From: Arenicellales bacterium | GTDB taxonomy: Bacteria > Pseudomonadota > Gammaproteobacteria > Arenicellales > JAJDZL01 | Assembly: GCA_965232345.1 (NCBI GenBank) | Contig: OZ246969.1 | Span: 168-64,167, forward strand | Reading direction: 5' to 3' | DNA length: 64,000 nucleotides | Shown: positions 2,072 to 21,868 of the stretch, piece after piece | Layout of the letters: the number at the start of each line of letters is the position of its first letter | Numbering within the stretch: position 1 is the stretch's first letter | Notes under the pieces: model-generated | What the model saw: the letters and a program-made list of their open reading frames with translations, nothing else | The model's database searches: none | Told to the model about the DNA's origin: nothing | Made by a program: the position numbers and the translations under genes

Positions 2072-3396
2072 TCAGAATGCGAGGCTCCAATCTCAACGAA
2101 CTGCCACTTCACGAAGCATCCCGACTGATCCAGTCAAAATCAGTTCATCCTTTCGAGCTGGTTTCGGACTGCATGATAAGAATCGAAGAAATTGAGGATG
2201 AGCTGGGCGCCTTCACCACCTTTGAGCGAAAACTGCTTTTCAACGGGCTGGCGGCGATCGAGCATATGCAGATGAACTCTCCATTGTTCGGCGTTCCTGT
2301 CGGTGTCAAAGACATCATGGAGACTGCTGGGATTCGAACCACAATGGGCAGCGAGATTTATCGGGACTATGTTCCTGAGCGCGATGCCGTCTGTGTCGCC
2401 ATGCTGAGGGCTGCGGGCGCCATCATCGCCGGAAAGACTGAATCGACTGAGTTCGCCTTTTTCTTTCCGGGCAAGACACGCAATCCCCATAACGCAGACC
2501 ACACGCCGGGCGGCTCTTCCATGGGCTCCGCGGCCGCGGTGTCCAAAATGATGCTGCCGCTTGCGCTGGGCACGCAGACCGCCGGTTCCGTCATACGTCC
2601 GGCCGCGTATTGCGGAGTGACCGGATACAAGGCCAGTCACGGCGCGATCAGCCTTGCAGGCGTTTGCGGTTTCGCGCAAAGTCTCGATTCAATCGGGTTT
2701 TTCGTTCGCGAAGTGCGGGATTTGACAATTGTCAGAAACGCTCTGTTCGGCGCGCCGCTCGAATTCGCACCTGTGCCTGAATCAATTCGGGTCGGATTTG
2801 TCAGGACTCCGCATTGGAGTCTGACTGAAACCGATCAGCGGCAACTGCTTGAAGATGTCTGTCAGCATCTGGATGGACGCGGGTTCAAGGTCTCGGAAAT
2901 GGAAGTGGGGCCGTCTGACGGCGCGTTGACTGAGGCGCAGATCACTGTCATGGCTTACGAAGGATGCCGGTCCCTGAGTGCAGAATATCGAAAGTTTCCG
3001 CAACTGCTGAGTGATCAGCTCAACGCTCTGATTGAGCTTGGACAGAATACCACGTTCGAAAGCTACCGGAAGGCTCTCTCATTGTCTGAATTATGGCAAA
3101 GAAAGCTGCGGAAACTGTTCCGCGATTATGATGTGCTCATCACGCCAAGCGCCCCGGGTGAGGCGCCGAAAGGATTGAACGCCACTGGCGATCCGATTTT
3201 CAATCGAATGTGGACGCTGCTGAAAGTTCCGTGCATCCATCTTCCCGTGTCATTCGGCGCCAGCGGACTGCCGCTGGGAATTCAACTTGTCGGCGCGTTC
3301 AATCAAGACGACAGATTGATCAGCATAGCCCGTCAAATTGAAAGTCGCCTGGCTGATTTCCAATTCGAACCAGAAACATCTGAAAACGCAGACTGA
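2068..3396 (+). CDS. Amidase (amidase-signature family)
   Basis: 442 aa. GGSSMGSAAAV signature and an upstream VKD lysine motif. The start overlaps the DUF1116 stop as ATGA (2068-2071). Confidence 0.85.
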   Translation: MIRMRGSNLNELPLHEASRLIQSKSVHPFELVSDCMIRIEEIEDELGAFTTFERKLLFNGLAAIEHMQMNSPLFGVPVGVKDIMETAGIRTTMGSEIYRDYVPERDAVCVAMLRAAGAIIAGKTESTEFAFFFPGKTRNPHNADHTPGGSSMGSAAAVSKMMLPLALGTQTAGSVIRPAAYCGVTGYKASHGAISLAGVCGFAQSLDSIGFFVREVRDLTIVRNALFGAPLEFAPVPESIRVGFVRTPHWSLTETDQRQLLEDVCQHLDGRGFKVSEMEVGPSDGALTEAQITVMAYEGCRSLSAEYRKFPQLLSDQLNALIELGQNTTFESYRKALSLSELWQRKLRKLFRDYDVLITPSAPGEAPKGLNATGDPIFNRMWTLLKVPCIHLPVSFGASGLPLGIQLVGAFNQDDRLISIARQIESRLADFQFEPETSENAD

Positions 3397-3415: not shown

Positions 3416-4735
3416 TCAGACCAGAAGCCCGGCCAGCAAGGTCGCGATACCCAAGAAAGAGAAAAATCCGGCAATGTCAGTGATCGTAGTCAATACGATC
3501 GATGAGGCAACCGCCGGATCCTGACCTATTTTTTTCAGTCCCACCGGCACCACAACTCCTGCGATTCCAGCGATCATCATGGCCAGAATCATCGATGAGC
3601 TGATGACCAGAACCAATCCGGCCTGCCCGCTCCAGATATAGACAGCGATTCCACAGACAATGGCAATGGCGATGCCATTCCAGAGTCCGACGAAGGTCTC
3701 CTTCCGGATCATCTTCGGCCAGTCGCGTACGTGAACCTCCCTCAGGGCCAAGCCCCGCATGGTTACCGCCAACGCCTGCGCGCCGGCATTTCCGGACTGC
3801 CCTGCCACCACCGGCAGCAGCACAGCAAGCGCAGTGAACTTTGCGATGGTGCCTTCGAAAATCCCAACGACAGCCGCCGCCGCGAATGCCGTCAGCAGAT
3901 TCACCTGCATCCAGGGCAGCCGCTTGCGAATCGCCAGCCCGGGTCCGGATGACGCGCGCTCGTCTTTGCTCACCCCCACCATGGTTTGAATGTCGATTGA
4001 CACATCGTCTTTCAGAACATCGATCAGCGTCGCATGTCGAATCACCCCCAGCACCCGACGCGCATGATCGACCACAGCCAGCTCTTCCAAGCCGTAGTCT
4101 TCCATTTTCTGGCTGATCTCCTCGCGTGTCGCAGTTGGCTCGACAACCACCAATACCCGTTCGGAAAGAGACTCAAGCGTGTCTTCCGGGTTGGCAAGCG
4201 CAAGCGTGTTGAGCTGCACGACCGAGCGAAGGCACTGGTTTTCATCGACAAGCCGGAGCTCATAAACAGTCTGGCTGATCTTTCGGGCTCGCAGCATCTG
4301 CTGAGCTTCAGCGACGGTCATGTCTCCTTGGAACAGCAAGACCCGCGAATCCATCAGCCCGCCGGCTGTATCAATCGGATAGGCCATCAATTCCCTGATT
4401 TCATTGGCCAACGACTTGTTCAGGCTGTTCAGCAAGGCGGTCCTTTTATCAGCATTCATTATGGTGAGAATCGATGCCGCTCGGCCGGGGTCGATTGCAT
4501 CCAGCACAGCCAGCGCACTTGACTCCTGCGCCAATTCCAGCATTTCCGATGCCGTCGATGGAGACAGCGCCGACCAGACGGGCGCCGCAATGTCCTCAGG
4601 CACCTGACCCAGAATTTCAAAGGCATCTTCGACAGACAGTGTCTCCAGACGGTTCGCGGCGCTCTGCGGCGCCTCTTGGCAGAATCGGGAAATTAGGATC
4701 GATTCTGCGTTCTGTTGTTCTACGTGCTCGGCCAT
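3416..4735 (-). CDS. mgtE: Magnesium transporter MgtE
   Basis: MgtE N-domain, CBS pair and a C-terminal 5-TM region (…AGNAGAQALAVTMRGLAL…). The track ORF extends to 4801. The ATG at 4735 is preferred because a GGGAGA Shine-Dalgarno sits about 8 nt upstream. Confidence 0.9.
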   Translation of the reverse strand: MAEHVEQQNAESILISRFCQEAPQSAANRLETLSVEDAFEILGQVPEDIAAPVWSALSPSTASEMLELAQESSALAVLDAIDPGRAASILTIMNADKRTALLNSLNKSLANEIRELMAYPIDTAGGLMDSRVLLFQGDMTVAEAQQMLRARKISQTVYELRLVDENQCLRSVVQLNTLALANPEDTLESLSERVLVVVEPTATREEISQKMEDYGLEELAVVDHARRVLGVIRHATLIDVLKDDVSIDIQTMVGVSKDERASSGPGLAIRKRLPWMQVNLLTAFAAAAVVGIFEGTIAKFTALAVLLPVVAGQSGNAGAQALAVTMRGLALREVHVRDWPKMIRKETFVGLWNGIAIAIVCGIAVYIWSGQAGLVLVISSSMILAMMIAGIAGVVVPVGLKKIGQDPAVASSIVLTTITDIAGFFSFLGIATLLAGLLV

Positions 4736-4766
4736 CGCTGAATCTCCCGATTCATTGTGGTTGTGA

Positions 4767-5594
4767 TTAGTTGAATGTGCGTTTTGCGGATAAAGCCGCA
4801 ACCATCATGTCCGCCAGTCTAAGACAGTAAATTTCCGCGAATCCCAAGACATCGGCATTCGGTTTGCTCACCGGATCAGCCGGCGATGATTCTGCCATCG
4901 CGCCCCATAAGTCGACAAAGCGAACGATTCCGACGAACTTCTGGTCGCGATCAATGACCGGCAGGATATCCGCATCAGCCCATTCATCCCACTCAACAGC
5001 CTGCTCAAGCGTCAGTGAAGCATAGATGGGCTTGATAGATGAATTCATGATTCTGGACACCGACTGACGCTCATCGACATGCTGCAGCAGTTCAATCAGT
5101 GAAACTGATCCAAGCGCCTCGTTCTGTTCATTGATGACGTATACACGACTGTAGATGTAGCCCTCATCAATCACCAGTTTCTTTGCTTCTGCGATCAGCA
5201 TGTCGGCGCGGCAGCAAATGGCCGCCGTGTCCATCCAGGCGCCTACCAAGGAGTTCTGGTACCGCAGTGTGATTGAAATTCGAAGCGCCTGACGGCGCGA
5301 GAGCATTCCCAGCAAAGCGGTACGCGCCTCTTCACCTGTGTTTCGAAGAATCGCCGCCGCATCTTTTGGGCTGAGTCGGTTAAGGTACTTGGTGGCTGAG
5401 GCTCTCGGCATCGCTTCCACACACCTGGCGGCTGCTGTCGGCAGCATAGAGCGAAGCGCCAGAACACTCAACGAATCTTCAATCGCCTCAATGAACTCTC
5501 CGGCTTCCTCCGCCTGCAGCTGCTGAATGGCGCTGACTGCGGCCGCACTGTAGCGACTGACGAAGTACTCTGCAATTTTCAAACGCTCAGACAT
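4767..5594 (-). CDS. Soluble MgtE-N domain plus CBS-pair protein (MgtE cytoplasmic-domain paralog without a membrane domain)
   Basis: About 275 aa. It resembles the MgtE N-terminal and CBS region and has no TM segments. The track ORF extends to 5621. The ATG at 5594 overlaps the MscS-like stop by 8 nt. Confidence 0.65.
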   Translation of the reverse strand: MSERLKIAEYFVSRYSAAAVSAIQQLQAEEAGEFIEAIEDSLSVLALRSMLPTAAARCVEAMPRASATKYLNRLSPKDAAAILRNTGEEARTALLGMLSRRQALRISITLRYQNSLVGAWMDTAAICCRADMLIAEAKKLVIDEGYIYSRVYVINEQNEALGSVSLIELLQHVDERQSVSRIMNSSIKPIYASLTLEQAVEWDEWADADILPVIDRDQKFVGIVRFVDLWGAMAESSPADPVSKPNADVLGFAEIYCLRLADMMVAALSAKRTFN

Positions 5595-6426
5595 TCTTCG
5601 ACTCCCGGGCCACCAGAACACTGGGCCGCTCCGAAAACATCTGCGCGGGTATTGTCACCCGTCCTTCCTCTGTATCGAGTATCACCGATACTGACGTTAC
5701 CTCAAGCACCGTGCCTTCGTGCTCACCGATGCGAATTCGCTGCCCCAGGCGGTAATCAGGATTCAGATACCGCACACCGATCAGGTTGCTGACCAGCTGT
5801 CGGGCGCCCAGGCTGAAAGCGATTGCCAGACCGCCCAGCGCGGCACCGATGGTAACCGACAGAATCGTTACTACAATGGTGATATCCACTCCAATCTGAT
5901 CGACACCGATCAGGATGAGAACGATGAGAACGAAAAACTGAGCGACCCGAGAGAGCGCCAGGCGCTGCGATTCTGCAAGATTCACCGCTGCGGTCCCTAT
6001 AGCCTGTCCGACGAGACCGCTGAACACGACACCGGCCCAGATAATCAGCGCTCCAGAAAGAATGTTTGGCAAGTGGTTGACAAGCCGGTTCAGCCAGTCG
6101 GCGAACAAGCCAAGACCGAGCAGATCCGTCGACAGTGCGACAAAAACCAGAATGACAAGCCAGAAAACAATCCTTCCGATGACAAGAGCGAAGGGTTCAT
6201 CAACCTTCGGCAGGACCGGTGTGCCGGCAATCTGAATGCGCGGACGGATTCGGTTGAGTCCTCCGATTAGTCGAACGACTATGATTTTGCTGATTCGGGC
6301 GACAATCCAACCTACCAGCAGAATTCCCAATACAATCAGAAGCTGCGGTAGAAAATTGATGAAGCTCGTCAGCGCATCAAGCGCAAGAAATGCAAGGTAG
6401 GTACCCCAGTTCAGTATCGTTTCCAT
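5587..6426 (-). CDS. Mechanosensitive ion channel family protein (MscS-like)
   Basis: 279 aa. N-terminal TM helices followed by an MscS beta-domain-like stretch (RIRIGEHEGTVLEVTSVSVILDTEEGRVTIPAQMF). Confidence 0.8.
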   Translation of the reverse strand: METILNWGTYLAFLALDALTSFINFLPQLLIVLGILLVGWIVARISKIIVVRLIGGLNRIRPRIQIAGTPVLPKVDEPFALVIGRIVFWLVILVFVALSTDLLGLGLFADWLNRLVNHLPNILSGALIIWAGVVFSGLVGQAIGTAAVNLAESQRLALSRVAQFFVLIVLILIGVDQIGVDITIVVTILSVTIGAALGGLAIAFSLGARQLVSNLIGVRYLNPDYRLGQRIRIGEHEGTVLEVTSVSVILDTEEGRVTIPAQMFSERPSVLVARESKNV

Positions 6427-6607
6427 ATTTTCTGCTCAGTGGCCGGCACCCATACGCGAGTGATCCGACATCTGCGCGAATTTTCTCGAATCACCGCGCT
6501 TTGAGGCAAAAATAATTTGCCAGATATTATAATCGGATAATGTGTTGTTTTTATTGGCGATTGAATAACGCTTGATTCGCTTCGGCATCAAATTTGCAAG
6601 TCAGTGT

Positions 6608-6925
6608 TCACTGCAGGTGTGATTGCAGTGGATTGTGTCGGGAATCCATCTCCGATGACAGGGATGTGCTGACGGTAACTGATGCGCGTCGGGTGTTGAG
6701 ATGGCAATGCTTGAGCAGGCCACGGTTGCGCTCCTCACACTTGGGCATCAGCCGTTCGACCCATTCGCTCAGCTGCAGCTGCCTGACAGTCTGGCCGAGC
6801 GGCATCAAACTTCCAGACAATGTGAGAGTGAGTTTGGTGCCGGCGGTCTCGTAAAGCAGAATGTTGATGGCCTTGTATAATTTCTTTTTGAGGGCTATCA
6901 GGAGAATCGCTAAATTCGCAGGCAC
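6608..6925 (-). CDS. Hypothetical ORF, possibly a decayed transposase N-terminal remnant
   Basis: 105-aa ORF abutting the palindromic element. LQLSEWVERLMPKCEERNRG only weakly recalls the LxxxQWxxIxPLLP motif of IS5-type (DUF4096) N-termini. It may be non-coding. Confidence 0.2.
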   Translation of the reverse strand: MPANLAILLIALKKKLYKAINILLYETAGTKLTLTLSGSLMPLGQTVRQLQLSEWVERLMPKCEERNRGLLKHCHLNTRRASVTVSTSLSSEMDSRHNPLQSHLQ

Positions 6926-6928
6926 TCC

Positions 6929-6994
6929 AATATTTAGGTTAGTGATAATATTTAGGTTAGTGATCGCTGCGAAGCAGTATCACTAACCTAAATA
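6929..6994. repeat. Palindromic element copy A (hairpin with a tandemly duplicated left arm)
   Basis: AATATTTAGGTTAGTGAT occurs twice in tandem (6929-6946 and 6947-6964). It is followed by loop CGCTGCGAAGCAGT and the complementary arm ATCACTAACCTAAATA. A reverse-complement copy lies at 40717-40766. Confidence 0.85.
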
Positions 6995-7395
6995 CTGGCT
7001 TACCTTTTCTTCGTTCTTTGTTCATTATTGGTAGTCATTGGTCAAACTTCATCGGATTCTACTGGTTGGTCTAACAATGATTCAAGTCAACCATTGCTGA
7101 ACCTGTGGGTAGTTGCGGACCAAGTTGCGCCTGTTCGTGAAGCACTGCCAAGTGGTTTTTTTCGGTGGCCGGGCAAAATCATCTCAGAAACAGTTCTTGA
7201 CAAGCAATATTTGGTTACGAATGCGAAGACTCTGCCATATGTATTCTCGACTTAAACTTGGGTCGAGCTAAAGAAAGATGATGGCAGCAGTGAGTCTATC
7301 GGTTGGGTTTATTGGGGAGAGGAGAAAGTTCCAGAGAAAAGTGCAAATTTCACTGCGGTAGCTAAAAACCGATCTCAACTAAATCAATGAACAAT

Positions 7396-7430
7396 GTGCG
7401 CACTGTTGCGGCGAATGGAACAGCGCGCAC
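7396..7430 (-). terminator. Stem-loop downstream of the 206-aa gene (possible terminator)
   Basis: GTGCGCACTGTT / AACAGCGCGCAC forms a 12-bp stem with one mismatch and an 11-nt loop, about 42 nt past the stop at 7472. The T-tract is weak. Confidence 0.35.
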
Positions 7431-7471
7431 CTGCAAAATTTTTCCTGCGGAGCAAAAAATCACAAATTCGA

Positions 7472-8092
7472 TCAGTCAGTTGGGGTGAGCCAGGTTTCAG
7501 ATATTGCCAGGAACGCAGTGCTCATCTCGCGTCCAAGAAAGTTTCTGGTTGTGATCTGCCCCGAGAATTTCTGTCCATTGACGGAAATTTCCGCCGATTT
7601 CGCTTCCAGGAACACGCTGTACATCTCGTGCTCGCCAGTGGCTGAAATCTCAACTGCCACCTCCGCAGCGAACGGTTCCTGCAAATCCCGCCAGGTCATC
7701 ACAACTTCCAGATCTTTTGAGATCACCGACTCGCTGCGATAGTCCCTGAGGTCTCCTTTTGTGGTCACCTCATCGATTGGCAGATAAGTCATGGAGCCCA
7801 GTCCCTCGCGTCCGCGAAATGACGGAAATTTGGACATGAAATCGCGAATCAGATACTCGGTAAGCGGCTCATTGTCAGTCAGGCAGATATTGTTCGCGTC
7901 AGGATAGCCCGTCGCTTCATTCGGCTTTTCCAGCACAATCATGGTCGTTCCTGCGCCATGCGGAGACAACGCGACGCGGAAGAAAATTCCAAGCGCGGTC
8001 CAGTCACCGTCCGGGTCTTCTTTCAGATAGATGCCAGGATTGTCGCCTGACCATTCAACCTTGCTGGGATTTCGAGGTTTGTTGGGGTCCAT
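7472..8092 (-). CDS. Hypothetical protein (206 aa)
   Basis: Clean ORF with protein-like composition. I recognise no motif. Confidence 0.55.
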   Translation of the reverse strand: MDPNKPRNPSKVEWSGDNPGIYLKEDPDGDWTALGIFFRVALSPHGAGTTMIVLEKPNEATGYPDANNICLTDNEPLTEYLIRDFMSKFPSFRGREGLGSMTYLPIDEVTTKGDLRDYRSESVISKDLEVVMTWRDLQEPFAAEVAVEISATGEHEMYSVFLEAKSAEISVNGQKFSGQITTRNFLGREMSTAFLAISETWLTPTD

Positions 8093-14517: not shown

Positions 14518-15447
14518 CTAGAAGGGCCGGTCTCCGTTGATTGTGAGCCGCCACATCACGCGGCGTTCTCCCGGATAGTCGTTCAGCGCGTAATGCTGCA
14601 GGCAGCGATTGTCCCAGAACGCAATTGACCCTGGTTCCCACCGGAAATTGCAGCAGATGTCCGGCTGGACTGCGTGCTTGACGAGATAGCGCAAGATCGG
14701 TTCAGACTCCTCTTCGCTCAAGCCTTCGATTCCGACTGTAAACGGTTCGTTCACGTAGAGCGCCTTGCGCCCGGTTTCAGGATGTGTGCGGATGATCGGA
14801 TGGGATACACGTGCCTGTGCGGTTTCATCACCCCGAATCGGTGTCCCCGCGTGCTTGCTTCGGTAGTCCTCGCTTGAGTACTCACCCGCCCGGCCATAGA
14901 CATTTTCCGCGCTGTGAACGCCTTTCAGATTTTTCAGCAATTCTTTGTAGGTCTCAGACAGCATGTCATAAGCCAGATATTGATTGGCGAACAGCGTGTT
15001 GCCACCGAATTTCGGCACTTCCATGCCACACAGGATTGAGCCGAGCGGTGGCTTCTCATCAAACGTTACATCGCTGTGCCAGGTGCCTGAAAAGTTGTAT
15101 TTGTCTTCAGGGTTCTTGACAACCATCATGATTTCTGGATGCCCTTCCAAGGACCCGACATAGGGGTGAATGTGAAACGATCCAAAGTGCTTGCCGAAAT
15201 TCTTGAGCGATTCAGGTTCGACTGTCTGATCCCGAAAAAAGATGACCAGGTGATCGAGGAAAGCGCACTTGATCTCGTCGATCGCTTCAGTCGAAACGGG
15301 GCGGGAGATGTCGACACCGAAAATTTCCGCCCCGCAAGCGCCGGCATACGGCTTGACTTCAATGTGTTGATAGTTTCGCTGAACTGAGTTCAGACCGACA
15401 CCTGGAATCACTTTAGGCCGCTGCCATTTCATTTCGTTTCCACTCAT
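14518..15447 (-). CDS. TauD/TfdA-family Fe(II)/2-oxoglutarate dioxygenase
   Basis: WHSDVTF (HxD), GGNTLFAN and WDNRCLQH motifs. The track ORF runs to 15498. The ATG at 15447 (MSGNEMKW) is preferred. Confidence 0.85.
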   Translation of the reverse strand: MSGNEMKWQRPKVIPGVGLNSVQRNYQHIEVKPYAGACGAEIFGVDISRPVSTEAIDEIKCAFLDHLVIFFRDQTVEPESLKNFGKHFGSFHIHPYVGSLEGHPEIMMVVKNPEDKYNFSGTWHSDVTFDEKPPLGSILCGMEVPKFGGNTLFANQYLAYDMLSETYKELLKNLKGVHSAENVYGRAGEYSSEDYRSKHAGTPIRGDETAQARVSHPIIRTHPETGRKALYVNEPFTVGIEGLSEEESEPILRYLVKHAVQPDICCNFRWEPGSIAFWDNRCLQHYALNDYPGERRVMWRLTINGDRPF

Positions 15448-15801
15448 GTAATGTGCTTGTTTAAAACACCCTGTACAAAGGTCACAATTACCTTTCACTC
15501 AAGTAAATGTTGAGAATCGCCGAAAAGACACTCACTCTTGATTTTAGCTTTATCCTCTGGGTTAGCACTTCTGGTTCTGATAGAACTTTTTTCAAATGCT
15601 TCTTGTCTGGTTCGCAGACTCTGTGCCTCACCTCGAAAACGAACCTACCTGAAGATTTCGATATTTATTCGCTAAGATTTTTCCTTATACATGGACAAAT
15701 GATGTCTGGGGTTTTGAATTAGAATAGTAGAATTCCACCACGAACAAATGAAAAGAGGAGACGACGATTTACGTCATCCCCCCTTTTCATAAAGCTGTCA
15801 T

Positions 15802-15899
15802 GTGGCTGTGGCGGAACTGGTATACGCAGGAGACTCGCATTCTCCCGCTCAGTTGTCAACCCAACTGGGCTGTGGGTTCGAATCCCACCAGCCACACCA
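15802..15899 (+). tRNA. Type-II tRNA (long variable arm) with a Leu-like D-arm, discriminator A73 and apparent anticodon CGC; encoded CCA
   Basis: Hand-folded. Acceptor stem is 15802-15808/15889-15895. The D-arm GCGGAACTGGTATACGC is close to E. coli tRNA-Leu GCGGAATTGGTAGACGC. The anticodon stem is GGAGA/TCTCC with loop CTCGCAT (anticodon at 15836-15838). The variable region is 26 nt with a 9-bp stem. The T-arm is GTGGG-TTCGAAT-CCCAC, then A-CCA. Confidence 0.7.
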
Positions 15900-16944
15900 T
15901 ATACCATTCATCCAATGAGTGACACAGACGGCATGTTGACTATATAGCATTCATTGGGGAAAAGTCAATACATTTTTTCATTTTGTCAAATAAAAATCTT
16001 GCATTTTCCCTCGTATCGTTCATCATACGCTAATGATTCAATACAACAAAAGTAGAATTTCAGATCCGAATTTGCAATCCCGGCACATTCCTTCCCTACT
16101 TTCAAACCAACTTTTAGTTGGTAAGGGACTAAGCGTTACTTTAGAACTTATCTGAATTGGCATTGGATTACTTTCGTGGACTGTGTGCAGAAATCCAGGT
16201 GGATTTTTGGTGCTGCCATGTCCAAATTCAGTTAAAAATTAAATCGTCATCAAGGCTGATGCTGAACAAACAGATAGTTGCACCCATAGCTGAAATTCCG
16301 CGACCCGCCATGACTGTACCGATCTCCTCGGAAAATATCGATTCGTCGGGACCCTGCCAGTAACGAGATGCAATATGTCATCTATGTCTGATTATTGAAT
16401 GGACACTCTTTGTATCGCAATGAAGACAGTGCGCTTCGTCTCACCATCGAATATTCTCAAGCCGCTTCCGTATGCTCCCATAGTGTGAAATTCTATTGAC
16501 CAGATCAATGAGCGACATTCCGATTTGATCATGATTGCCAGACCACATTCCTGAATTCTCATTCTGCAAATTTGCACTTAGTCGTGGAGATGATGACTGT
16601 TTCGTATCACGTATTTCGCAAAATCACAGAGCAAATGTGACTTCCAACTACAATTCCCATTCGTCAAATTTTTTACCAGAATGGTAACGAAAGAATATGG
16701 TTTGATGAATTGCGACTTCCACAGCTGAGGAGCATGTCATTGACGATTCCAAATTGATTCATTCGCCTCTCAATCGCTTGAAAAGCCAATAAAATACTGC
16801 GCGGTCTGACTAACTTCGCTGAGAATGGGCTTCTGCCGGTGCAACTGACATTCACCATAGTCAGATGGCTGGAACTATCAATTCAGGCAGTGAAGAACCG
16901 CACACGCTTCAGCAGTCATTATTTCGGATCGAGATAAGAAACTC

Positions 16945-18543
16945 ATGAATTCAGAGTCATTTGACTTCATTATCGTCGGTGGCGGTACGGCCGGATGCGT
17001 GCTCGCGAATCGCCTGTCAGCAAACCCTGCAAATTCGGTTCTGGTGCTTGAGGCTGGCAAGCGGGACACAAATCCGTGGATTCACATCCCAGTGGGTTAT
17101 TTCAAGACAATGCACAATCCAGCGACGGATTGGTGCTACAAGACAGAGTCCGATCCGGGATTGAATCATCGCTCCATCAAGTGGCCGCGCGGCAAAGTAC
17201 TTGGCGGATCAAGTTCAATCAACGGTCTGCTGTATGTTCGAGGTCAGCGAGAGGATTACGATGACTGGGAGAGCGCTGGAAACCCCGGCTGGTCGTTTGA
17301 CAGCATGCTGCCCTACTTCATCAAGTGCGAGCATCAGGAGCGCGGCGCCGATGATTTCCACGGCCAAGGTGGCATGCTTAAAGTCTCAGACATGCGGATT
17401 CGCCGCCAGATTGGTGACGCATTCATTCAAGGCGCACTGGAAATCGGCATACCCTCAAACGACGACTTCAATGGCGCTGTTCAGTCAGGAGTCGGCTATT
17501 TTCAACTGACCGCCTGGAAAGGGCGGCGTTGCAGTTCAGCGGTTGGCTATCTGAGACCCGCGTTATCGCGATCCAACTTGAAAGTGGTTACCGATGCGCT
17601 CACCACTCGTATCGCATTTGATGGAGATCGCGCATCTGCCGTTGAATATCAGCATGGCGGCAAGCAAATCACTGTGCGCGCCAATCGAGAGATTATTGTT
17701 TGTGCCGGGGCCATCAATTCACCGCAGCTGCTGATGCTCTCGGGCGTGGGCCGCGCTGAACACCTGCAGGAGCTTCAGATTCCTGTCAAGCGAAACCTGC
17801 CCGGTGTCGGCGAAAATCTGCATGATCACCTGCAGATAAGATCGGTCTACCGCTGTTCAGTGAAAACTCTGAATGATGAGATTCGAAATCCAATTCATAA
17901 AATGCTGATCGGCCTCAGGTACTTTGCCTTTCGCACAGGACCGATGAGCATGGCCGCAAGTCAGATAGGAATATTCACCGGATCGCAGCCGCACATCGAA
18001 CGTCCCGACATCCAGTTTCATTTTCAGCCGCTGAGTTCCGACAGCCCCGGACAGGGGGTTCATGATTTTTCAGGCATCACCTCTTCGGTCACGCAGCTTC
18101 GACCGACGAGCCGCGGAAATCTGCGGCTTCAATCAGTTGATCCCAACGACTACGTCGCCATACATCCGAATTACCTGAGCACCGAGGAAGATCAGGTAAC
18201 CACGGTCAATGCCATGAAGGTGTCCCGACGCATTGTGAACAGCAAGGCAATGTCAGGATACATCGAGAAGGAGGTTCTGCCGGGGGTTCAGGTTCGAACT
18301 GATGACGAACTGCTAGACTGTGCCAGAGCCATCGGCGAGACCATCTACCATCCCGTCGGCACCTGCAAGATGGGGCCTGAGTCAGATCCAATGGCGGTCG
18401 TTGATCCGCAGCTTCGAGTTCACAGTCTCGACAATTTGCGTGTCGTCGATGCGTCGATCATGCCTGTTATCACTTCCGGCAATACCAACGCACCCACATT
18501 CGCAATTGCAGAAAAAGCCGCTGATATGATTCTCGGCCATTAG
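16945..18543 (+). CDS. GMC family oxidoreductase (choline/alcohol dehydrogenase-like)
   Basis: 532 aa. N-terminal FAD motif FDFIIVGGGTAGCVLANRLS and C-terminal HPVGTCKMG and GNTNAPT motifs. Confidence 0.9.
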   Translation: MNSESFDFIIVGGGTAGCVLANRLSANPANSVLVLEAGKRDTNPWIHIPVGYFKTMHNPATDWCYKTESDPGLNHRSIKWPRGKVLGGSSSINGLLYVRGQREDYDDWESAGNPGWSFDSMLPYFIKCEHQERGADDFHGQGGMLKVSDMRIRRQIGDAFIQGALEIGIPSNDDFNGAVQSGVGYFQLTAWKGRRCSSAVGYLRPALSRSNLKVVTDALTTRIAFDGDRASAVEYQHGGKQITVRANREIIVCAGAINSPQLLMLSGVGRAEHLQELQIPVKRNLPGVGENLHDHLQIRSVYRCSVKTLNDEIRNPIHKMLIGLRYFAFRTGPMSMAASQIGIFTGSQPHIERPDIQFHFQPLSSDSPGQGVHDFSGITSSVTQLRPTSRGNLRLQSVDPNDYVAIHPNYLSTEEDQVTTVNAMKVSRRIVNSKAMSGYIEKEVLPGVQVRTDDELLDCARAIGETIYHPVGTCKMGPESDPMAVVDPQLRVHSLDNLRVVDASIMPVITSGNTNAPTFAIAEKAADMILGH

Positions 18544-19510: not shown

Positions 19511-19945
19511 TCAAAATATATTTCTGGTGAGAAACTCATCAACATATTTCCTGGGAGAGACCGTCGGGTGTGCCGACGACGGATTGTTCAGCAACAACTT
19601 GTCTCCAGTTACAAGAATGCTTTCAGATTGGGATGCCAGCAATCGCCAAAGATGATTGTCGCCTGAATCAGGCGCTTGGTGTGCTGATGCAGGCTCACGC
19701 CAGATCGAATTGGCGACAATTTCGGTTAACAGGATATCGATGTCCAAATCCGTTAACCGGTGCAGGTGAACAAGTGATGGACGACGAATCACCTCGGCAT
19801 ACTCAGCTAGCAAATCTGCAGACATCAGATAAAAGATCTCTCCTTTCAGCATGGCATTGAGTAATTTTGCGGTGAGGCTGTTCTCATCAGCCGTAATCAA
19901 TCCAGCGACAACGACATTGGTATCAATGACTGTGAATCTGGGCAC
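19511..19945 (-). CDS. PIN-domain toxin (VapC-like)
   Basis: 144 aa. N-terminal VIDTNVVVAGL and later acidic residues (LVTGD) are typical of PIN nucleases. It lies 18 nt downstream of an RHH gene. Confidence 0.8.
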   Translation of the reverse strand: MPRFTVIDTNVVVAGLITADENSLTAKLLNAMLKGEIFYLMSADLLAEYAEVIRRPSLVHLHRLTDLDIDILLTEIVANSIWREPASAHQAPDSGDNHLWRLLASQSESILVTGDKLLLNNPSSAHPTVSPRKYVDEFLTRNIF

Positions 19946-19963
19946 TTTATGGCTGCGAAATTC

Positions 19964-20269
19964 TCAATTGCACTTTTCTCGGCGCTGTTGCCTGGTTTCC
20001 TGAACTGCTAGTTGAAGTGCTTTATCTGAATCCAATTCAGACGTTGCCCGCGCTCGACTTACTATTTCCCGAGCGCTTTCGTAGGTGCGAATTCCACGAA
20101 GTCGCAGGGATTCTTCGATGATTGAGCCAATCGAACGCCGCTGGCGCGCTGCGGTTTCCTTTAAAGCCTGATGCAATTGATCGTCTATGGTAATTGTAAG
20201 TCGAGACAATTTTTCACTCCAGTGTGGTGTGTTTGTGATTTTGCATTTATCACCAATATGTAGTGGCAA
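19964..20269 (-). CDS. Ribbon-helix-helix (CopG-like) antitoxin
   Basis: LTITIDDQLHQALKETAARQRRSIGSIIEESL is a typical RHH beta-strand plus helices. The true start may be internal to the 101-aa ORF. Confidence 0.65.
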   Translation of the reverse strand: MPLHIGDKCKITNTPHWSEKLSRLTITIDDQLHQALKETAARQRRSIGSIIEESLRLRGIRTYESAREIVSRARATSELDSDKALQLAVQETRQQRREKCN

Positions 20270-20329
20270 AGCATGCCGTACTTTTTTTGTGAATAATATA
20301 AATGCTACACCACAGCCACCAACAATAAA

Positions 20330-21868
20330 TCAAATTTCTTGCGACTGTACTCCTAAAACATTTTCCAGCTCATAAGGGGTAATTTCATTTCTGTTTGAAA
20401 GATGTCGTTTCAACGCAACTAGACCGACGCGCAAACGTTTCGCCATCGACTCAATGCTGCGTTTCAAGTCTTCGTCATCATCAACTGCTGGCCTCCGTGC
20501 GCGATGCGGTGGCATCAATAACATTGCTGCGAATGCGTTTGCTCTCTGTTCAACCGAGGGTGAAGCCCACGGTGTACTGCTATGCGCCAATCGTCGTGCT
20601 CTACTCTGATCAAACAAGATGTGGCAAAACTCGTGGGCTAAGGTGAATCGCCGTCCTCCCGTGAATTTGTTTTTAATGTTTTGGGTGTTTACGAGAATTG
20701 TAGGTCTGAGATCACTTCCGGCAAACGCCACCCCTCGCGGACCCTCTGACCCAAGTTCCAAACTCCTCACAAGAATACCCAAATTTTCCAATAGAACTTC
20801 AAGCTGGGTACTCGCTGAACTAGTGTCCGGGTCTGCTTCATCCAAGATTGTCAACGCAAGGGAATACCCATTAGCCCACGGGGACGACGCGGACCATGCA
20901 GGCTCATCTGATACAAGCTCAGACAATTTATCGGAAACACCCGGGTTCGCTTGCGCGTCGAAGCACTCTGCCAACAACCTGGCTGCCGCGCTGTCCGAAA
21001 TGTTGGGCGCAAGATCACCAAACATAGCGACTTCCGGTGAAAGTGTTCCCAACCAGCATTTATGTTGATGATTTAAAGGGCGGTCCAACTTTTGTAACGC
21101 ACTCAAAAATGTATTCGTCAAGGTTTGTGGCTCAGGGCTACGATCAAGATACCACGAAATCGCAGACAATCCCACTGGCTGAGACTTGATCTTGCTCCAC
21201 TCCATCGATATCGCTTCGTACCATGATAATTCCTGAAAACCAGATTGTTCTAGAAACCATTCTATGGCTCTTTGAAATACATCAGCTACCGAGTCAACAG
21301 AAGCTCTGGCGATACCATCTTCTACTATAAACTTGGCAGCATCCGCACCGGGTTGTACTCGGTCACCCCATGAAATTTCTATTTCATCTTCCATGCGTTG
21401 GAAAAATACATCTGGCAGAATACCGCCTTCGGCAGCAGAACGAAGTGCATGTCTTTCTCCCCAGACTTGCCAGGCGAGGAATTGGTCAATATCATCGCCG
21501 GTAGATTCAAGTTTACTCAAGTAGGCGGCTCTCGCTGACGGCGGTTGGCTTTCTGCAAAACGCCCTTCATCAGGGAGACGCTTTTCATGAAGGAGCGGCA
21601 TCCAATTTTGAACCAACCATTTGAACAATGGTGCAAGGAACCATCGAACTTCCTGAATTTCATTGCTATCTGATTCAATGCGAAAGGCACACAGATTGAT
21701 ATCAGCCACCCAGAGACGCCACTCTCCCCAAGATCCTTCGCTCGTTTCGGGTTCAACGTCCGTCAACTCATCAGGTATATGCCGCACCTGAATAGCAAAT
21801 TGCGTTTTTTCGCCAAATATCTCGAAATGTTTGGCTGTGTCCAACGACCCGTCCTCCAAATGTGTCAT
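20330..21868 (-). CDS. Large ImmA/IrrE-type (HExxH) metallopeptidase-domain protein with a roughly 400-aa uncharacterised N-terminal region
   Basis: 512 aa. C-terminal FTLAHEFCHILFD…EQRANAFAAMLLMP matches the ImmA/IrrE (COG2856/DUF955) zinc-protease signature. I do not recognise the N-terminal 400 aa. Confidence 0.7.
   Translation of the reverse strand: MTHLEDGSLDTAKHFEIFGEKTQFAIQVRHIPDELTDVEPETSEGSWGEWRLWVADINLCAFRIESDSNEIQEVRWFLAPLFKWLVQNWMPLLHEKRLPDEGRFAESQPPSARAAYLSKLESTGDDIDQFLAWQVWGERHALRSAAEGGILPDVFFQRMEDEIEISWGDRVQPGADAAKFIVEDGIARASVDSVADVFQRAIEWFLEQSGFQELSWYEAISMEWSKIKSQPVGLSAISWYLDRSPEPQTLTNTFLSALQKLDRPLNHQHKCWLGTLSPEVAMFGDLAPNISDSAAARLLAECFDAQANPGVSDKLSELVSDEPAWSASSPWANGYSLALTILDEADPDTSSASTQLEVLLENLGILVRSLELGSEGPRGVAFAGSDLRPTILVNTQNIKNKFTGGRRFTLAHEFCHILFDQSRARRLAHSSTPWASPSVEQRANAFAAMLLMPPHRARRPAVDDDEDLKRSIESMAKRLRVGLVALKRHLSNRNEITPYELENVLGVQSQEI

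Follow-up and report, generated by a model that had tools for sequence, protein, structure and literature searches.

A Leucine-Type Type-II tRNA Gene with the Anticodon CGC in an Arenicellales Chromosome and Its Sporadically Spread Bacterial Family

We analyzed a 64,000-nucleotide (nt) stretch of DNA from an Arenicellales bacterium (assembly GCA_965232345.1, contig OZ246969.1, positions 168 to 64,167), referred to here as the window, and found in it a tRNA gene whose body and anticodon disagree. The gene encodes a type-II tRNA with a leucine-type body and the anticodon CGC, which matches the alanine codon GCG. It is a structurally intact accessory gene in a variable intergenic hotspot of the chromosome, and it belongs to a sporadically spread family of Leu-body type-II tRNAs with the anticodon CGC. 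The structure of this family, long variable arm included, is strongly conserved and under selection. GCG still means alanine, and there has been no change of the genetic code. Our reading of the gene, which we hold tentatively and with somewhat less than even confidence, is that it is a horizontally acquired, leucine-accepting tRNA that would cause low-level or conditional Ala-to-Leu mistranslation.

The only tRNA that ARAGORN called in the window lies on the plus strand at 15802-15899 and has the anticodon cgc at position 35. Rfam family RF00005 matched it with 53.6 bits (E = 1e-8) against a gathering score of 29, with a span of 15802-15896 that covered the full model (1-71). In the Rfam alignment the D-stem has 3 bp and a G13/A22 mismatch, the anticodon loop is the 7-nt CUCGCAU, and the variable region holds a long insertion. 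When the 98 nt were folded without constraints, the cloverleaf together with a 9-bp variable-arm helix was the minimum free energy (MFE) fold (-42.3 kcal/mol, 66% of the ensemble, z = -3.3 against shuffles), in which all five helices were without flaw and the CCA was kept. The variable arm was found to consist of the 9-bp stem GCTCAGTTG/CAACTGGGC, which includes one G-U pair, and a 6-nt loop (TCAACC), followed by U48. Another register with a leucine or serine anticodon was excluded, since CGC falls at positions 34-36 by ARAGORN, by Rfam and in the free MFE fold. These results agree with what an earlier note on this DNA had read from the sequence alone, namely a 7/5 cloverleaf with an encoded CCA (ARAGORN, Rfam and MFE fold concur), a CGC anticodon at 15836-15838 (which the covariance-model fold keeps in the anticodon loop), the Leu-like 3-bp D-stem, G13/A22 mismatch and A73 (sequence and Rfam), and G:C at 3:70 in place of G3:U70. 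Alignment with E. coli K-12 leuV likewise upheld its claims that the D-arm differs from that of E. coli tRNA-Leu at two positions and that the variable arm (15846-15871) is oversized, with 26 nt and a 9-bp stem as against 15 nt and a 4-bp stem in leuV. The same note had held that a pseudogene-level score would refute its reading; the score obtained was not of that level.

The determinants of the E. coli leucyl-tRNA synthetase (LeuRS) are A73, A14, A15:U48, G18G19 and A20a, and both the anticodon and the variable arm are irrelevant to it (PMC9976931). All of these determinants, including the A15:U48 Levitt pair, were present in the window tRNA, and its type-II, 7/5 body with a long variable arm was that of a bacterial tRNA-Leu. 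A leucine anticodon (NAG or YAA, i.e. A35) was absent, as CGC was found in every fold. The closest BLAST matches in phage records were annotated as tRNA-Leu, while BLAST against E. coli genomes and plasmids gave no match at those database sizes. G3:U70 is described as the essentially universal determinant of alanyl-tRNA synthetase (AlaRS) (PMC8583063). The window tRNA had the NGC anticodon of tRNA-Ala and lacked both G3:U70 and the short-loop type-I body. A Ser-type core has G73 and G15:C48, with three nucleotides separating position 13 from G18. Because the window tRNA has A73, A15:U48 and four nucleotides (14-17) before G18G19, charging with serine would be less likely than charging with leucine. 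Two features only were Ser-like, the long variable stem and the one-plus-one unpaired bases that flank it. Work on how type-II tRNAs are discriminated has identified a single unpaired base to either side of the stem as the Ser-like geometry; in most family members, as in E. coli leuV, there is one on the 5' side and there are two on the 3' side. The window tRNA also differed from tRNA-Sec (8/5, 6-bp D-stem, UCA) in its 7/5 geometry, 3-bp D-stem and CGC, and Rfam clan competition kept RF00005. The 8/4 or 9/3 geometry of the allo-tRNAs was not found, both the Rfam alignment and the MFE fold being 7/5.

The search pattern behind the family combined the Leu-type D-loop GGTANAYRC with a 5-bp stem and the loop YTCGCR, and it further required a standard T-loop and a variable region no shorter than 9 nt (22 nt in the metagenome scan). 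The genome and metagenome scans thus fixed CGC and left A73, U48, A14 and A15 free. The pattern matched 67 loci in species-representative genomes, 13 metagenome contigs and one viral contig, and these CGC-fixed scans gave about 80 Leu-type type-II tRNA(CGC) genes in all, from at least seven bacterial phyla. Nearly all matches were complete, with 7/7 acceptor pairs and A73, and none had G3:U70; when the acceptor stems were tabulated, 3:70 was C:G, U:A or G:C in nearly all members and never G:U. In the alignments A73 was invariant in the 20 long-arm and 41 short-arm members, and U48, A14 and A15 were invariant or nearly so across the family. A group with variable regions of normal length (13-17 nt) was made up mostly of Gemmatimonadota (37 loci), with further members in Planctomycetales and Chloroflexota, and several of its genomes held two or three tRNA(CGC) copies. 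About 25 genes had long arms (22-32 nt) like that of the window copy. Their hosts were sponge-associated Gammaproteobacteria and Pseudomonadales metagenome-assembled genomes (MAGs), Alphaproteobacteria (including Paracoccaceae and Rhodobacteraceae), marine Proteobacteria, Dehalococcoidia, Acidobacteriota (Bryobacterales, Blastocatellia) and the cyanobacterium Adonisia. The window tRNA itself was absent from the genome and metagenome collections scanned. A covariance model, R1, was built from 41 short-arm members that share the Leu-type D-arm, the CGC loop, A73 and an intact acceptor stem. The window copy, which lies outside the training alignment, matched R1 with 72.7 bits (E = 3e-17). The model also found the second copy of a long-arm CGC tandem (3297-3394 and 3503-3601) in locus L002, the alphaproteobacterial MAG OY282459.1 (1.73 Mb).

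Several members of the family or their neighbors departed from the common pattern. The tandem copies of L002 differ in the flanks of the anticodon loop (TTCGCAC vs CTCGCAA) and in the variable loop, and the spacers that flank them are also repeated. In two Gemmatimonadota MAGs, a tRNA of Leu type at a distance of ~430 nt from the CGC copy has the valine anticodon CAC (L018, 875-958; L019, 58-140); its body is near-identical to that copy, its flanks are duplicated, and R1 confirmed the Leu type. The Dehalococcoidia MAG CBDCRJ010000002.1 (L003) has a second type-II tRNA at 4478-4568, 65 nt upstream of the CGC tRNA, with the alanine anticodon TGC, U73 and a G2:U71 wobble, and the loop of its variable arm is TCAACC, the same as in the window tRNA. 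Leu-type CGC tRNAs with acceptor pairing of 6/7 and 4/7 were present on a prophage contig (L001, 9882-9966) and in L047 (304-390), both Myxococcota; L001 has the discriminator U73 and a terminator hairpin after the tRNA. The acceptor mismatches of these two would be the pattern expected at a prophage attachment junction. In four archaeal loci (L036, L043, L191 and L195; Bathyarchaeia, Nitrososphaerota) the pattern fits, with a CGC loop and a 25-26-nt insert, and only 4-5 of 7 acceptor pairs form in the bacterial layout. These may be intron-containing or otherwise different tRNAs.

Viral contigs were also scanned for type-II tRNAs with a Leu-type D-arm, the anticodon in this case being left free. 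The anticodons recovered were ordinary Ser and Tyr ones, the stop-reading CTA, TCA and TTA with A73, and scattered A73 forms with UGG, UGC, GCC, UCC, GUC and UGU. Type-II tRNAs with the asparagine anticodon GTT were found in IMG/VR in L069 (3024-3121), L072, L152, L220, L249 and about 40 other loci. Their discriminator is G73 and CCA is usually encoded; the D-arm is Leu-like and the variable region measures 11-31 nt. From these features this very common group looks like a type-II tRNA-Asn. In view of the variety of viral anticodons, the window tRNA belongs to a wider use of the type-II scaffold with non-standard anticodons that has been little described.

Selection on the fold was assessed by counting covariation in the cloverleaf and the variable-arm helix of 20 distinct, aligned long-arm members. 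A standard pair was formed in 96.8% of the cells of the alignment, as compared to 41-48% when the 3' partner was slid by 1-3 columns. Of the 27 pairs, 21 were changed on both sides, against 8-14 in the slid controls (1-3 columns) and a mean of 13.1 in the shuffles, and the observed value was reached in 0 of 500 shuffles for each of five measures. Compensatory covariation across phyla therefore indicates long-term selection on the family fold. Orthologous copies in four Gemmatimonadaceae (L006, L044, L048 and L068) have anticodon stems that have diverged with compensation while CGC is unchanged. The distal stem of the variable arm was partly conserved (TGCAG/CTGCA), with the recurring loops TAACAG, CTAACC and TAGAAG. 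The earlier note had proposed to check whether the CGC anticodon and the long arm are conserved with compensatory changes. For the long arm and the cloverleaf this was the case; the constancy of CGC is not independent evidence, as most members came from CGC-fixed retrieval.

The tRNA gene of the window lies in a lineage-specific segment (Table 1) for which blastn found no counterpart in the related loci L203 or L204. Downstream of the gene, 15900-16944 had no open reading frame (ORF) longer than 68 amino acids and a GC content of 0.37-0.44 vs 0.50-0.58 in the flanks, as the earlier note had seen in describing ~1 kb of gene-free AT-rich DNA. Rfam gave no other non-coding RNA in 15400-17000. The 3' stem arm of the hairpin that precedes the gene ends in CCCCCCTTTTCAT on the plus strand, and a comparable strong hairpin was present 4 nt upstream of the tRNA in L029, L060 and L210. 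Since this terminator-like hairpin stands just before the tRNA, the gene may sit directly behind the terminator of a neighboring transcription unit. That note had also considered a decaying tRNA or the relic of an attachment (att) site. For the window copy neither is supported: pairing is perfect in all stems, the gene encodes CCA, a search for the 3' 25-mer (up to 3 mismatches) gave no further copy, no att-like direct repeats were found, and no integrase is among the neighbors.

Table 1. Position and anatomy of the tRNA gene in the window (coordinates are those of the 64,000-nt stretch).
Feature	Coordinates	Strand	Details and source
Lineage-specific segment between TauD-family gene (-) and GMC oxidoreductase gene (+)	15432..16957		hairpin, tRNA and ~1 kb of AT-rich DNA
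19-bp hairpin, ends 11 nt upstream of tRNA 5' end	15748..15790		terminator-like on the minus strand
Type-II tRNA gene, Leu-type body, anticodon CGC, encoded CCA	15802..15899	+	98 nt, 7/5 cloverleaf; ARAGORN, Rfam, MFE fold, model R1 (72.7 bits)
Acceptor stem, 5' strand GTGGCTG	15802..15808	+	pairs 7/7 with 15889-15895 (CAGCCAC); 3:70 = G:C
D-arm GCGGAACTGGTATACGC	15811..15827	+	3-bp stem, G13/A22 mismatch, A14, A15, G18G19, A20a; Rfam and leuV alignments
Anticodon arm GGAGA-CTCGCAT-TCTCC	15829..15845	+	U33, A37; CGC = C15836 G15837 C15838; sequence, ARAGORN, Rfam, MFE fold
Variable region, 26 nt	15846..15871	+	C + GCTCAGTTG + TCAACC + CAACTGGGC + T; MFE fold, family alignment, leuV comparison
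T-arm GTGGG-TTCGAAT-CCCAC	15872..15888	+	Rfam, MFE fold
Discriminator A73 (15896), then genomic CCA (15897-15899)	15896..15899	+	sequence

Homologs of the GMC oxidoreductase with 80-83% identity were found on long contigs. One related protein cluster is named as coming from a Gammaproteobacteria MAG of a series that we take to be sponge-derived, and the chromosome of the window is probably that of a sponge-associated gammaproteobacterium. Through five GMC homologs we gathered seven syntenic loci (L202-L208), six of them distinct in sequence (L202 = L203). The order M24 peptidase, ABC transporter, TauD, GMC oxidoreductase, two unknown genes, M19 dipeptidase and amidase was mostly kept; L205, L207 and L208 have no TauD, and L207 and L208 differ downstream of the GMC gene. 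None of the six distinct loci had a tRNA upstream of the GMC gene. The spot was occupied by a 290-bp spacer in one relative, by insertion sequence (IS) fragments and a Dam methylase in another, and by HipBA in a third. A second comparison, which is independent of the anticodon, was made at the ribonucleotide reductase (RNR)-beta/hydrolase locus that holds the tRNA in L022, L029 and L060. Five further orthologous sites were examined, one with a tRNA (CGC) and four without. Of the four carriers, three are mismatched in the acceptor or D-stem (acceptor pairing of 5/7 in L022, 6/7 in L060, and 6/7 with a D-stem mismatch in L210). A LAGLIDADG homing-endonuclease (intein-like) insertion was noted in the RNR large subunit of L210 (1-2460) and L213 (1-2467), relatives of the L029/L060 lineage.

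The neighbors of the family were heterogeneous and comprised housekeeping genes (RNR, ClpA, GreA), IS1, IS5 and IS1595 elements, DNA methylases, SIR2, Uma2, KilA-N, restriction-modification, MazF-like, BrnT-like, PIN and toxin-antitoxin genes. A conserved partner gene was sought by all-against-all ORF clustering of 68 loci, which gave only Ser/Thr kinases, probably abundant in the genomes of Gemmatimonadota, together with spurious ORFs that overlap the tRNA. A Pfam scan of 54 neighbors of long-arm members showed nothing in common, and a scan of 34 window proteins for a linked synthetase gave only a CysRS. In no locus examined was a dedicated synthetase paralog or a tRNA-modifying enzyme linked to the tRNA. 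Because of its patchy presence, its variable landing sites and the frequency of IS, restriction-modification or toxin-antitoxin genes next to it, we infer that the gene was acquired horizontally. A second window-specific insertion (19511-21868), absent from the syntenic relatives L203-L206, encodes a PIN_3 toxin, an RHH antitoxin and a 512-amino-acid protein with an M78 (ImmA/IrrE) peptidase domain. Between the antitoxin and M78 genes, a 23-nt stretch on the minus strand (20297-20319) is 74% complementary to the 5' end of the tRNA and includes the exact 10-mer GTGGCTGTGG. This match is probably due to chance, though it could be a fragment of the tRNA 5' end.

The mistranslation that we tentatively propose would begin with charging by LeuRS. 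If LeuRS is indifferent to the anticodon and the variable arm in these hosts as well, leucine would be the most likely charge, because the window tRNA keeps every known E. coli LeuRS determinant and lacks the G3:U70 that AlaRS requires. EF-Tu would deliver the charged tRNA, CGC would pair perfectly with GCG codons, and competition with the normal tRNA-Ala at GCG would lead to a low-level or conditional substitution of leucine for alanine. A wider proposal, which we consider doubtful, is that Leu-identity type-II readers of GCG, with relatives for the valine codon GUG, are kept and exchanged across phyla either for programmed mistranslation or as a G3:U70-independent Ala-tRNA. If this were true, the family would provide programmed, perhaps stress- or infection-triggered, statistical Ala-to-Leu mistranslation and would correspond in bacteria to the nev-tRNAs of nematodes, with no need of a dedicated synthetase; alternatively, Ala-tRNA would be made independently of G3:U70, with the conserved oversized variable arm as a recognition handle. 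Either outcome would be new.

A number of observations weigh against Ala-to-Leu mistranslation. The identity rules of LeuRS derive from E. coli and Aquifex and not from these hosts, and the variable arm's base in the window copy, with its single unpaired base per side, is Ser-like. No sigma-70-like promoter was found upstream of the gene on the plus strand, where the strong hairpin stands 11 nt before it. With CGC fixed in the collection scans, its retention is partly an effect of ascertainment. The tRNA is also present in two streamlined genomes (1.5-1.7 Mb), in tandem in one of them, which is hard to square with a purely harmful product. The codon usage of the carriers is a further difficulty. 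GCG is the commonest alanine codon in the window (38% of alanine codons, 36 per 1000 in 44 genes), so that efficient insertion of leucine at 3.6% of all codons would be very costly. It shows no avoidance and aligns to alanine in relatives as often as the other alanine codons do, and in the ClpA of L051, a 1.54-Mb alphaproteobacterial genome, the strongly conserved GCG columns were alanine in 34 of 40 cases and leucine in none.

When ten window genes were compared with relatives that have no tRNA at the locus, GCG faced alanine in 77% of cases; GCA, GCC and GCU matched this rate, and leucine was outside the top six residues facing GCG. The use of GCG tracked the GC content of third codon positions (GC3) in window genes. 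Codon bias was strand-specific in L051, where GCG made up 59 of 87 alanine codons in ClpA (3755-6052, minus strand) and 5 of 53 in DXS (6407-7999, plus strand). A reassignment of GCG to leucine was ruled out for the window and L051 by this comparison of codon columns with homologs. Since GCG is used heavily at conserved alanine positions, any mis-insertion must be low-level or conditional.

The heavy use of GCG by the hosts (38% in the window, 59/87 in L051 ClpA) could also be read in favor of a working decoder of this codon, a tRNA that would insert alanine or another acceptable residue and would give extra capacity for a much-used G-ending codon. Such a tRNA would have to be charged by a route that does without G3:U70, for example a divergent mode of AlaRS recognition or a tRNA-dependent conversion. 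This explanation is in line with the tandem copies in a 1.73-Mb genome and with the other C34 or Ala-box type-II tRNAs that occur alongside (CAC in L018/L019; UGC, with G2:U71, in L003). The GUU type-II tRNAs of phage contigs, which carry the AsnRS discriminator G73, indicate in addition that a type-II body can have an identity that matches its anticodon. We nevertheless regard this decoder as improbable, the least favored of the explanations considered, since the determinant that is called essentially universal for AlaRS (PMC8583063) is absent from every member, AlaRS ignores the anticodon, and the loci examined contained no linked synthetase paralog or tRNA-modifying enzyme that could serve such a route.

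Two other explanations leave bulk translation aside. The tRNA-shaped RNA might travel with defense and mobile DNA and act as a decoy or substitute substrate for a tRNA-targeting toxin or defense nuclease or as a donor for a tRNA-dependent transferase, or it might modulate the stringent response as an uncharged ligand of the A site. Its setting is suggestive of this, as relatives have HipBA, IS fragments or a Dam methylase in the same hotspot, the PIN/RHH pair and M78 protein lie 3.6 kb away, other members adjoin restriction-modification, SIR2, MazF-like, BrnT-like, PIN and Uma2 genes, and many type-II tRNAs in phage contigs have odd anticodons. The partly conserved distal variable stem (TGCAG/CTGCA; loops TAACAG, CTAACC and TAGAAG), which LeuRS does not need, points the same way. 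Yet no partner gene is conserved, the heterogeneous neighbors are often housekeeping genes (RNR, ClpA, GreA), no specific toxin target can be named, and a tRNA that works in translation needs just such features as the canonical 7-nt anticodon loop (U33, A37), unbroken T-arm and encoded CCA seen here, so that we judge a non-translational role unlikely. A near-neutral passenger, that is a transferred or duplicated derivative of tRNA-Leu that is silent or barely expressed in its host and eventually lost, would account for the absence of the tRNA from all syntenic relatives examined, for the mismatches in 3 of 4 carriers at the RNR-beta locus and the four relatives there that lost or never had it, for the lack of a promoter-like site upstream of the window tRNA, and for the truncation of L001 and L047 at a prophage edge. 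It would not account for the flawless helices and retained CCA of the window copy, for cross-phyla compensatory covariation, which implies long-term selection on the fold, or for the orthologs in L006, L044, L048 and L068 that keep CGC despite diverged and compensated anticodon stems; this too is an unlikely explanation, and we give it slightly less credence than a role outside translation.

Natural tRNAs with a mismatch between anticodon and charging are rare and provide the main evidence that cells tolerate or exploit ambiguous decoding. Among them a Leu-type tRNA directed to GCG would stand out, as it would need no partner synthetase and would act on one of the most abundant codons of GC-rich genomes, and also because it occurs in at least seven phyla with a structure under clear selection. 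The family offers about 80 sequences ready for charging, reporter-decoding and proteomic work, and its long-arm subgroup is a natural case for the effect of an extended variable arm on recognition by LeuRS or SerRS. Even if the tRNAs turn out not to be expressed or charged, the family would still point to a mobile tRNA-like element.

Among known tRNAs, the window tRNA is close to the E. coli leuV tRNA-Leu(CAG), with which it shares the 7/5 geometry, the long arm, the 3-bp D-stem with a 13/22 mismatch, A14, A15:U48, G18G19, A20a, A73 and CCA, and from which it differs at 2 of 17 D-arm positions. It differs from leuV further in its anticodon, which is CGC and not NAG/YAA, in its arm (26 nt/9 bp vs 15 nt/4 bp) and in having one 3' unpaired base and not two. 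Unlike bacterial tRNA-Leu genes, moreover, the gene is accessory and missing in close relatives. With a canonical tRNA-Ala(CGC) it has CGC, A37 and A73 in common; the latter belongs to type I, its variable loop is 5 nt long and it carries G3:U70, whereas the window tRNA is type II with G3:C70.

Three groups of unusual tRNAs are relevant here. The nev-tRNAs of nematodes are class-II tRNAs with Gly CCC or Ile UAU anticodons (PMC3333845). Like them, the window tRNA combines a Leu-type class-II body with a non-Leu sense anticodon, conservation in a set of species and predicted leucine at a foreign codon. Leucylation of nev-tRNAs has reportedly been shown by experiment in the nematode work. They are eukaryotic and nematode-specific, have other anticodons and no reported oversized arm, whereas the window tRNA is bacterial and known from sequence. 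In Streptomyces and Kitasatospora, tRNAProX has a Pro body with an Ala, Asn or Thr anticodon, is accessory and has been proposed to serve deliberate mistranslation (PMC11415595, PMC10404621). The window tRNA is likewise an accessory bacterial tRNA in which body identity disagrees with the anticodon. tRNAProX is said to come with a dedicated synthetase paralog, ProRSx; it is type I and concerns another amino acid and other taxa, whereas the window tRNA has no linked paralog. The allo-tRNAs have 8/4 or 9/3 acceptor/T geometry and 35 different anticodons and occur in metagenomes and a few bacterial phyla, and the paper that describes them makes no mention of tRNA-Leu, LeuRS or a CGC anticodon (PMC5389517). 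The window tRNA shares their long variable arm, non-cognate anticodon and sporadic occurrence. Their identity is reportedly Ser, some also carrying G3:U70 for Ala. Unlike them, it has a Leu-type core and A73, and because its geometry is 7/5 and not 8/4 or 9/3 it is not an allo-tRNA.

For bacteria, a 2024 review of tRNAs that mistranslate naturally names only tRNAProX, Sec/Cys hybrids and allo-tRNAs. We found no description of a Leu-type tRNA(CGC) in the full-text-searchable literature, in which subscription papers are thinly covered, so that an earlier description is possible. Judged by its sequence, the window tRNA would be an anticodon/identity hybrid tRNA, which is a known kind, in a Leu-type tRNA(CGC) form that appears, as far as we found, to be new.

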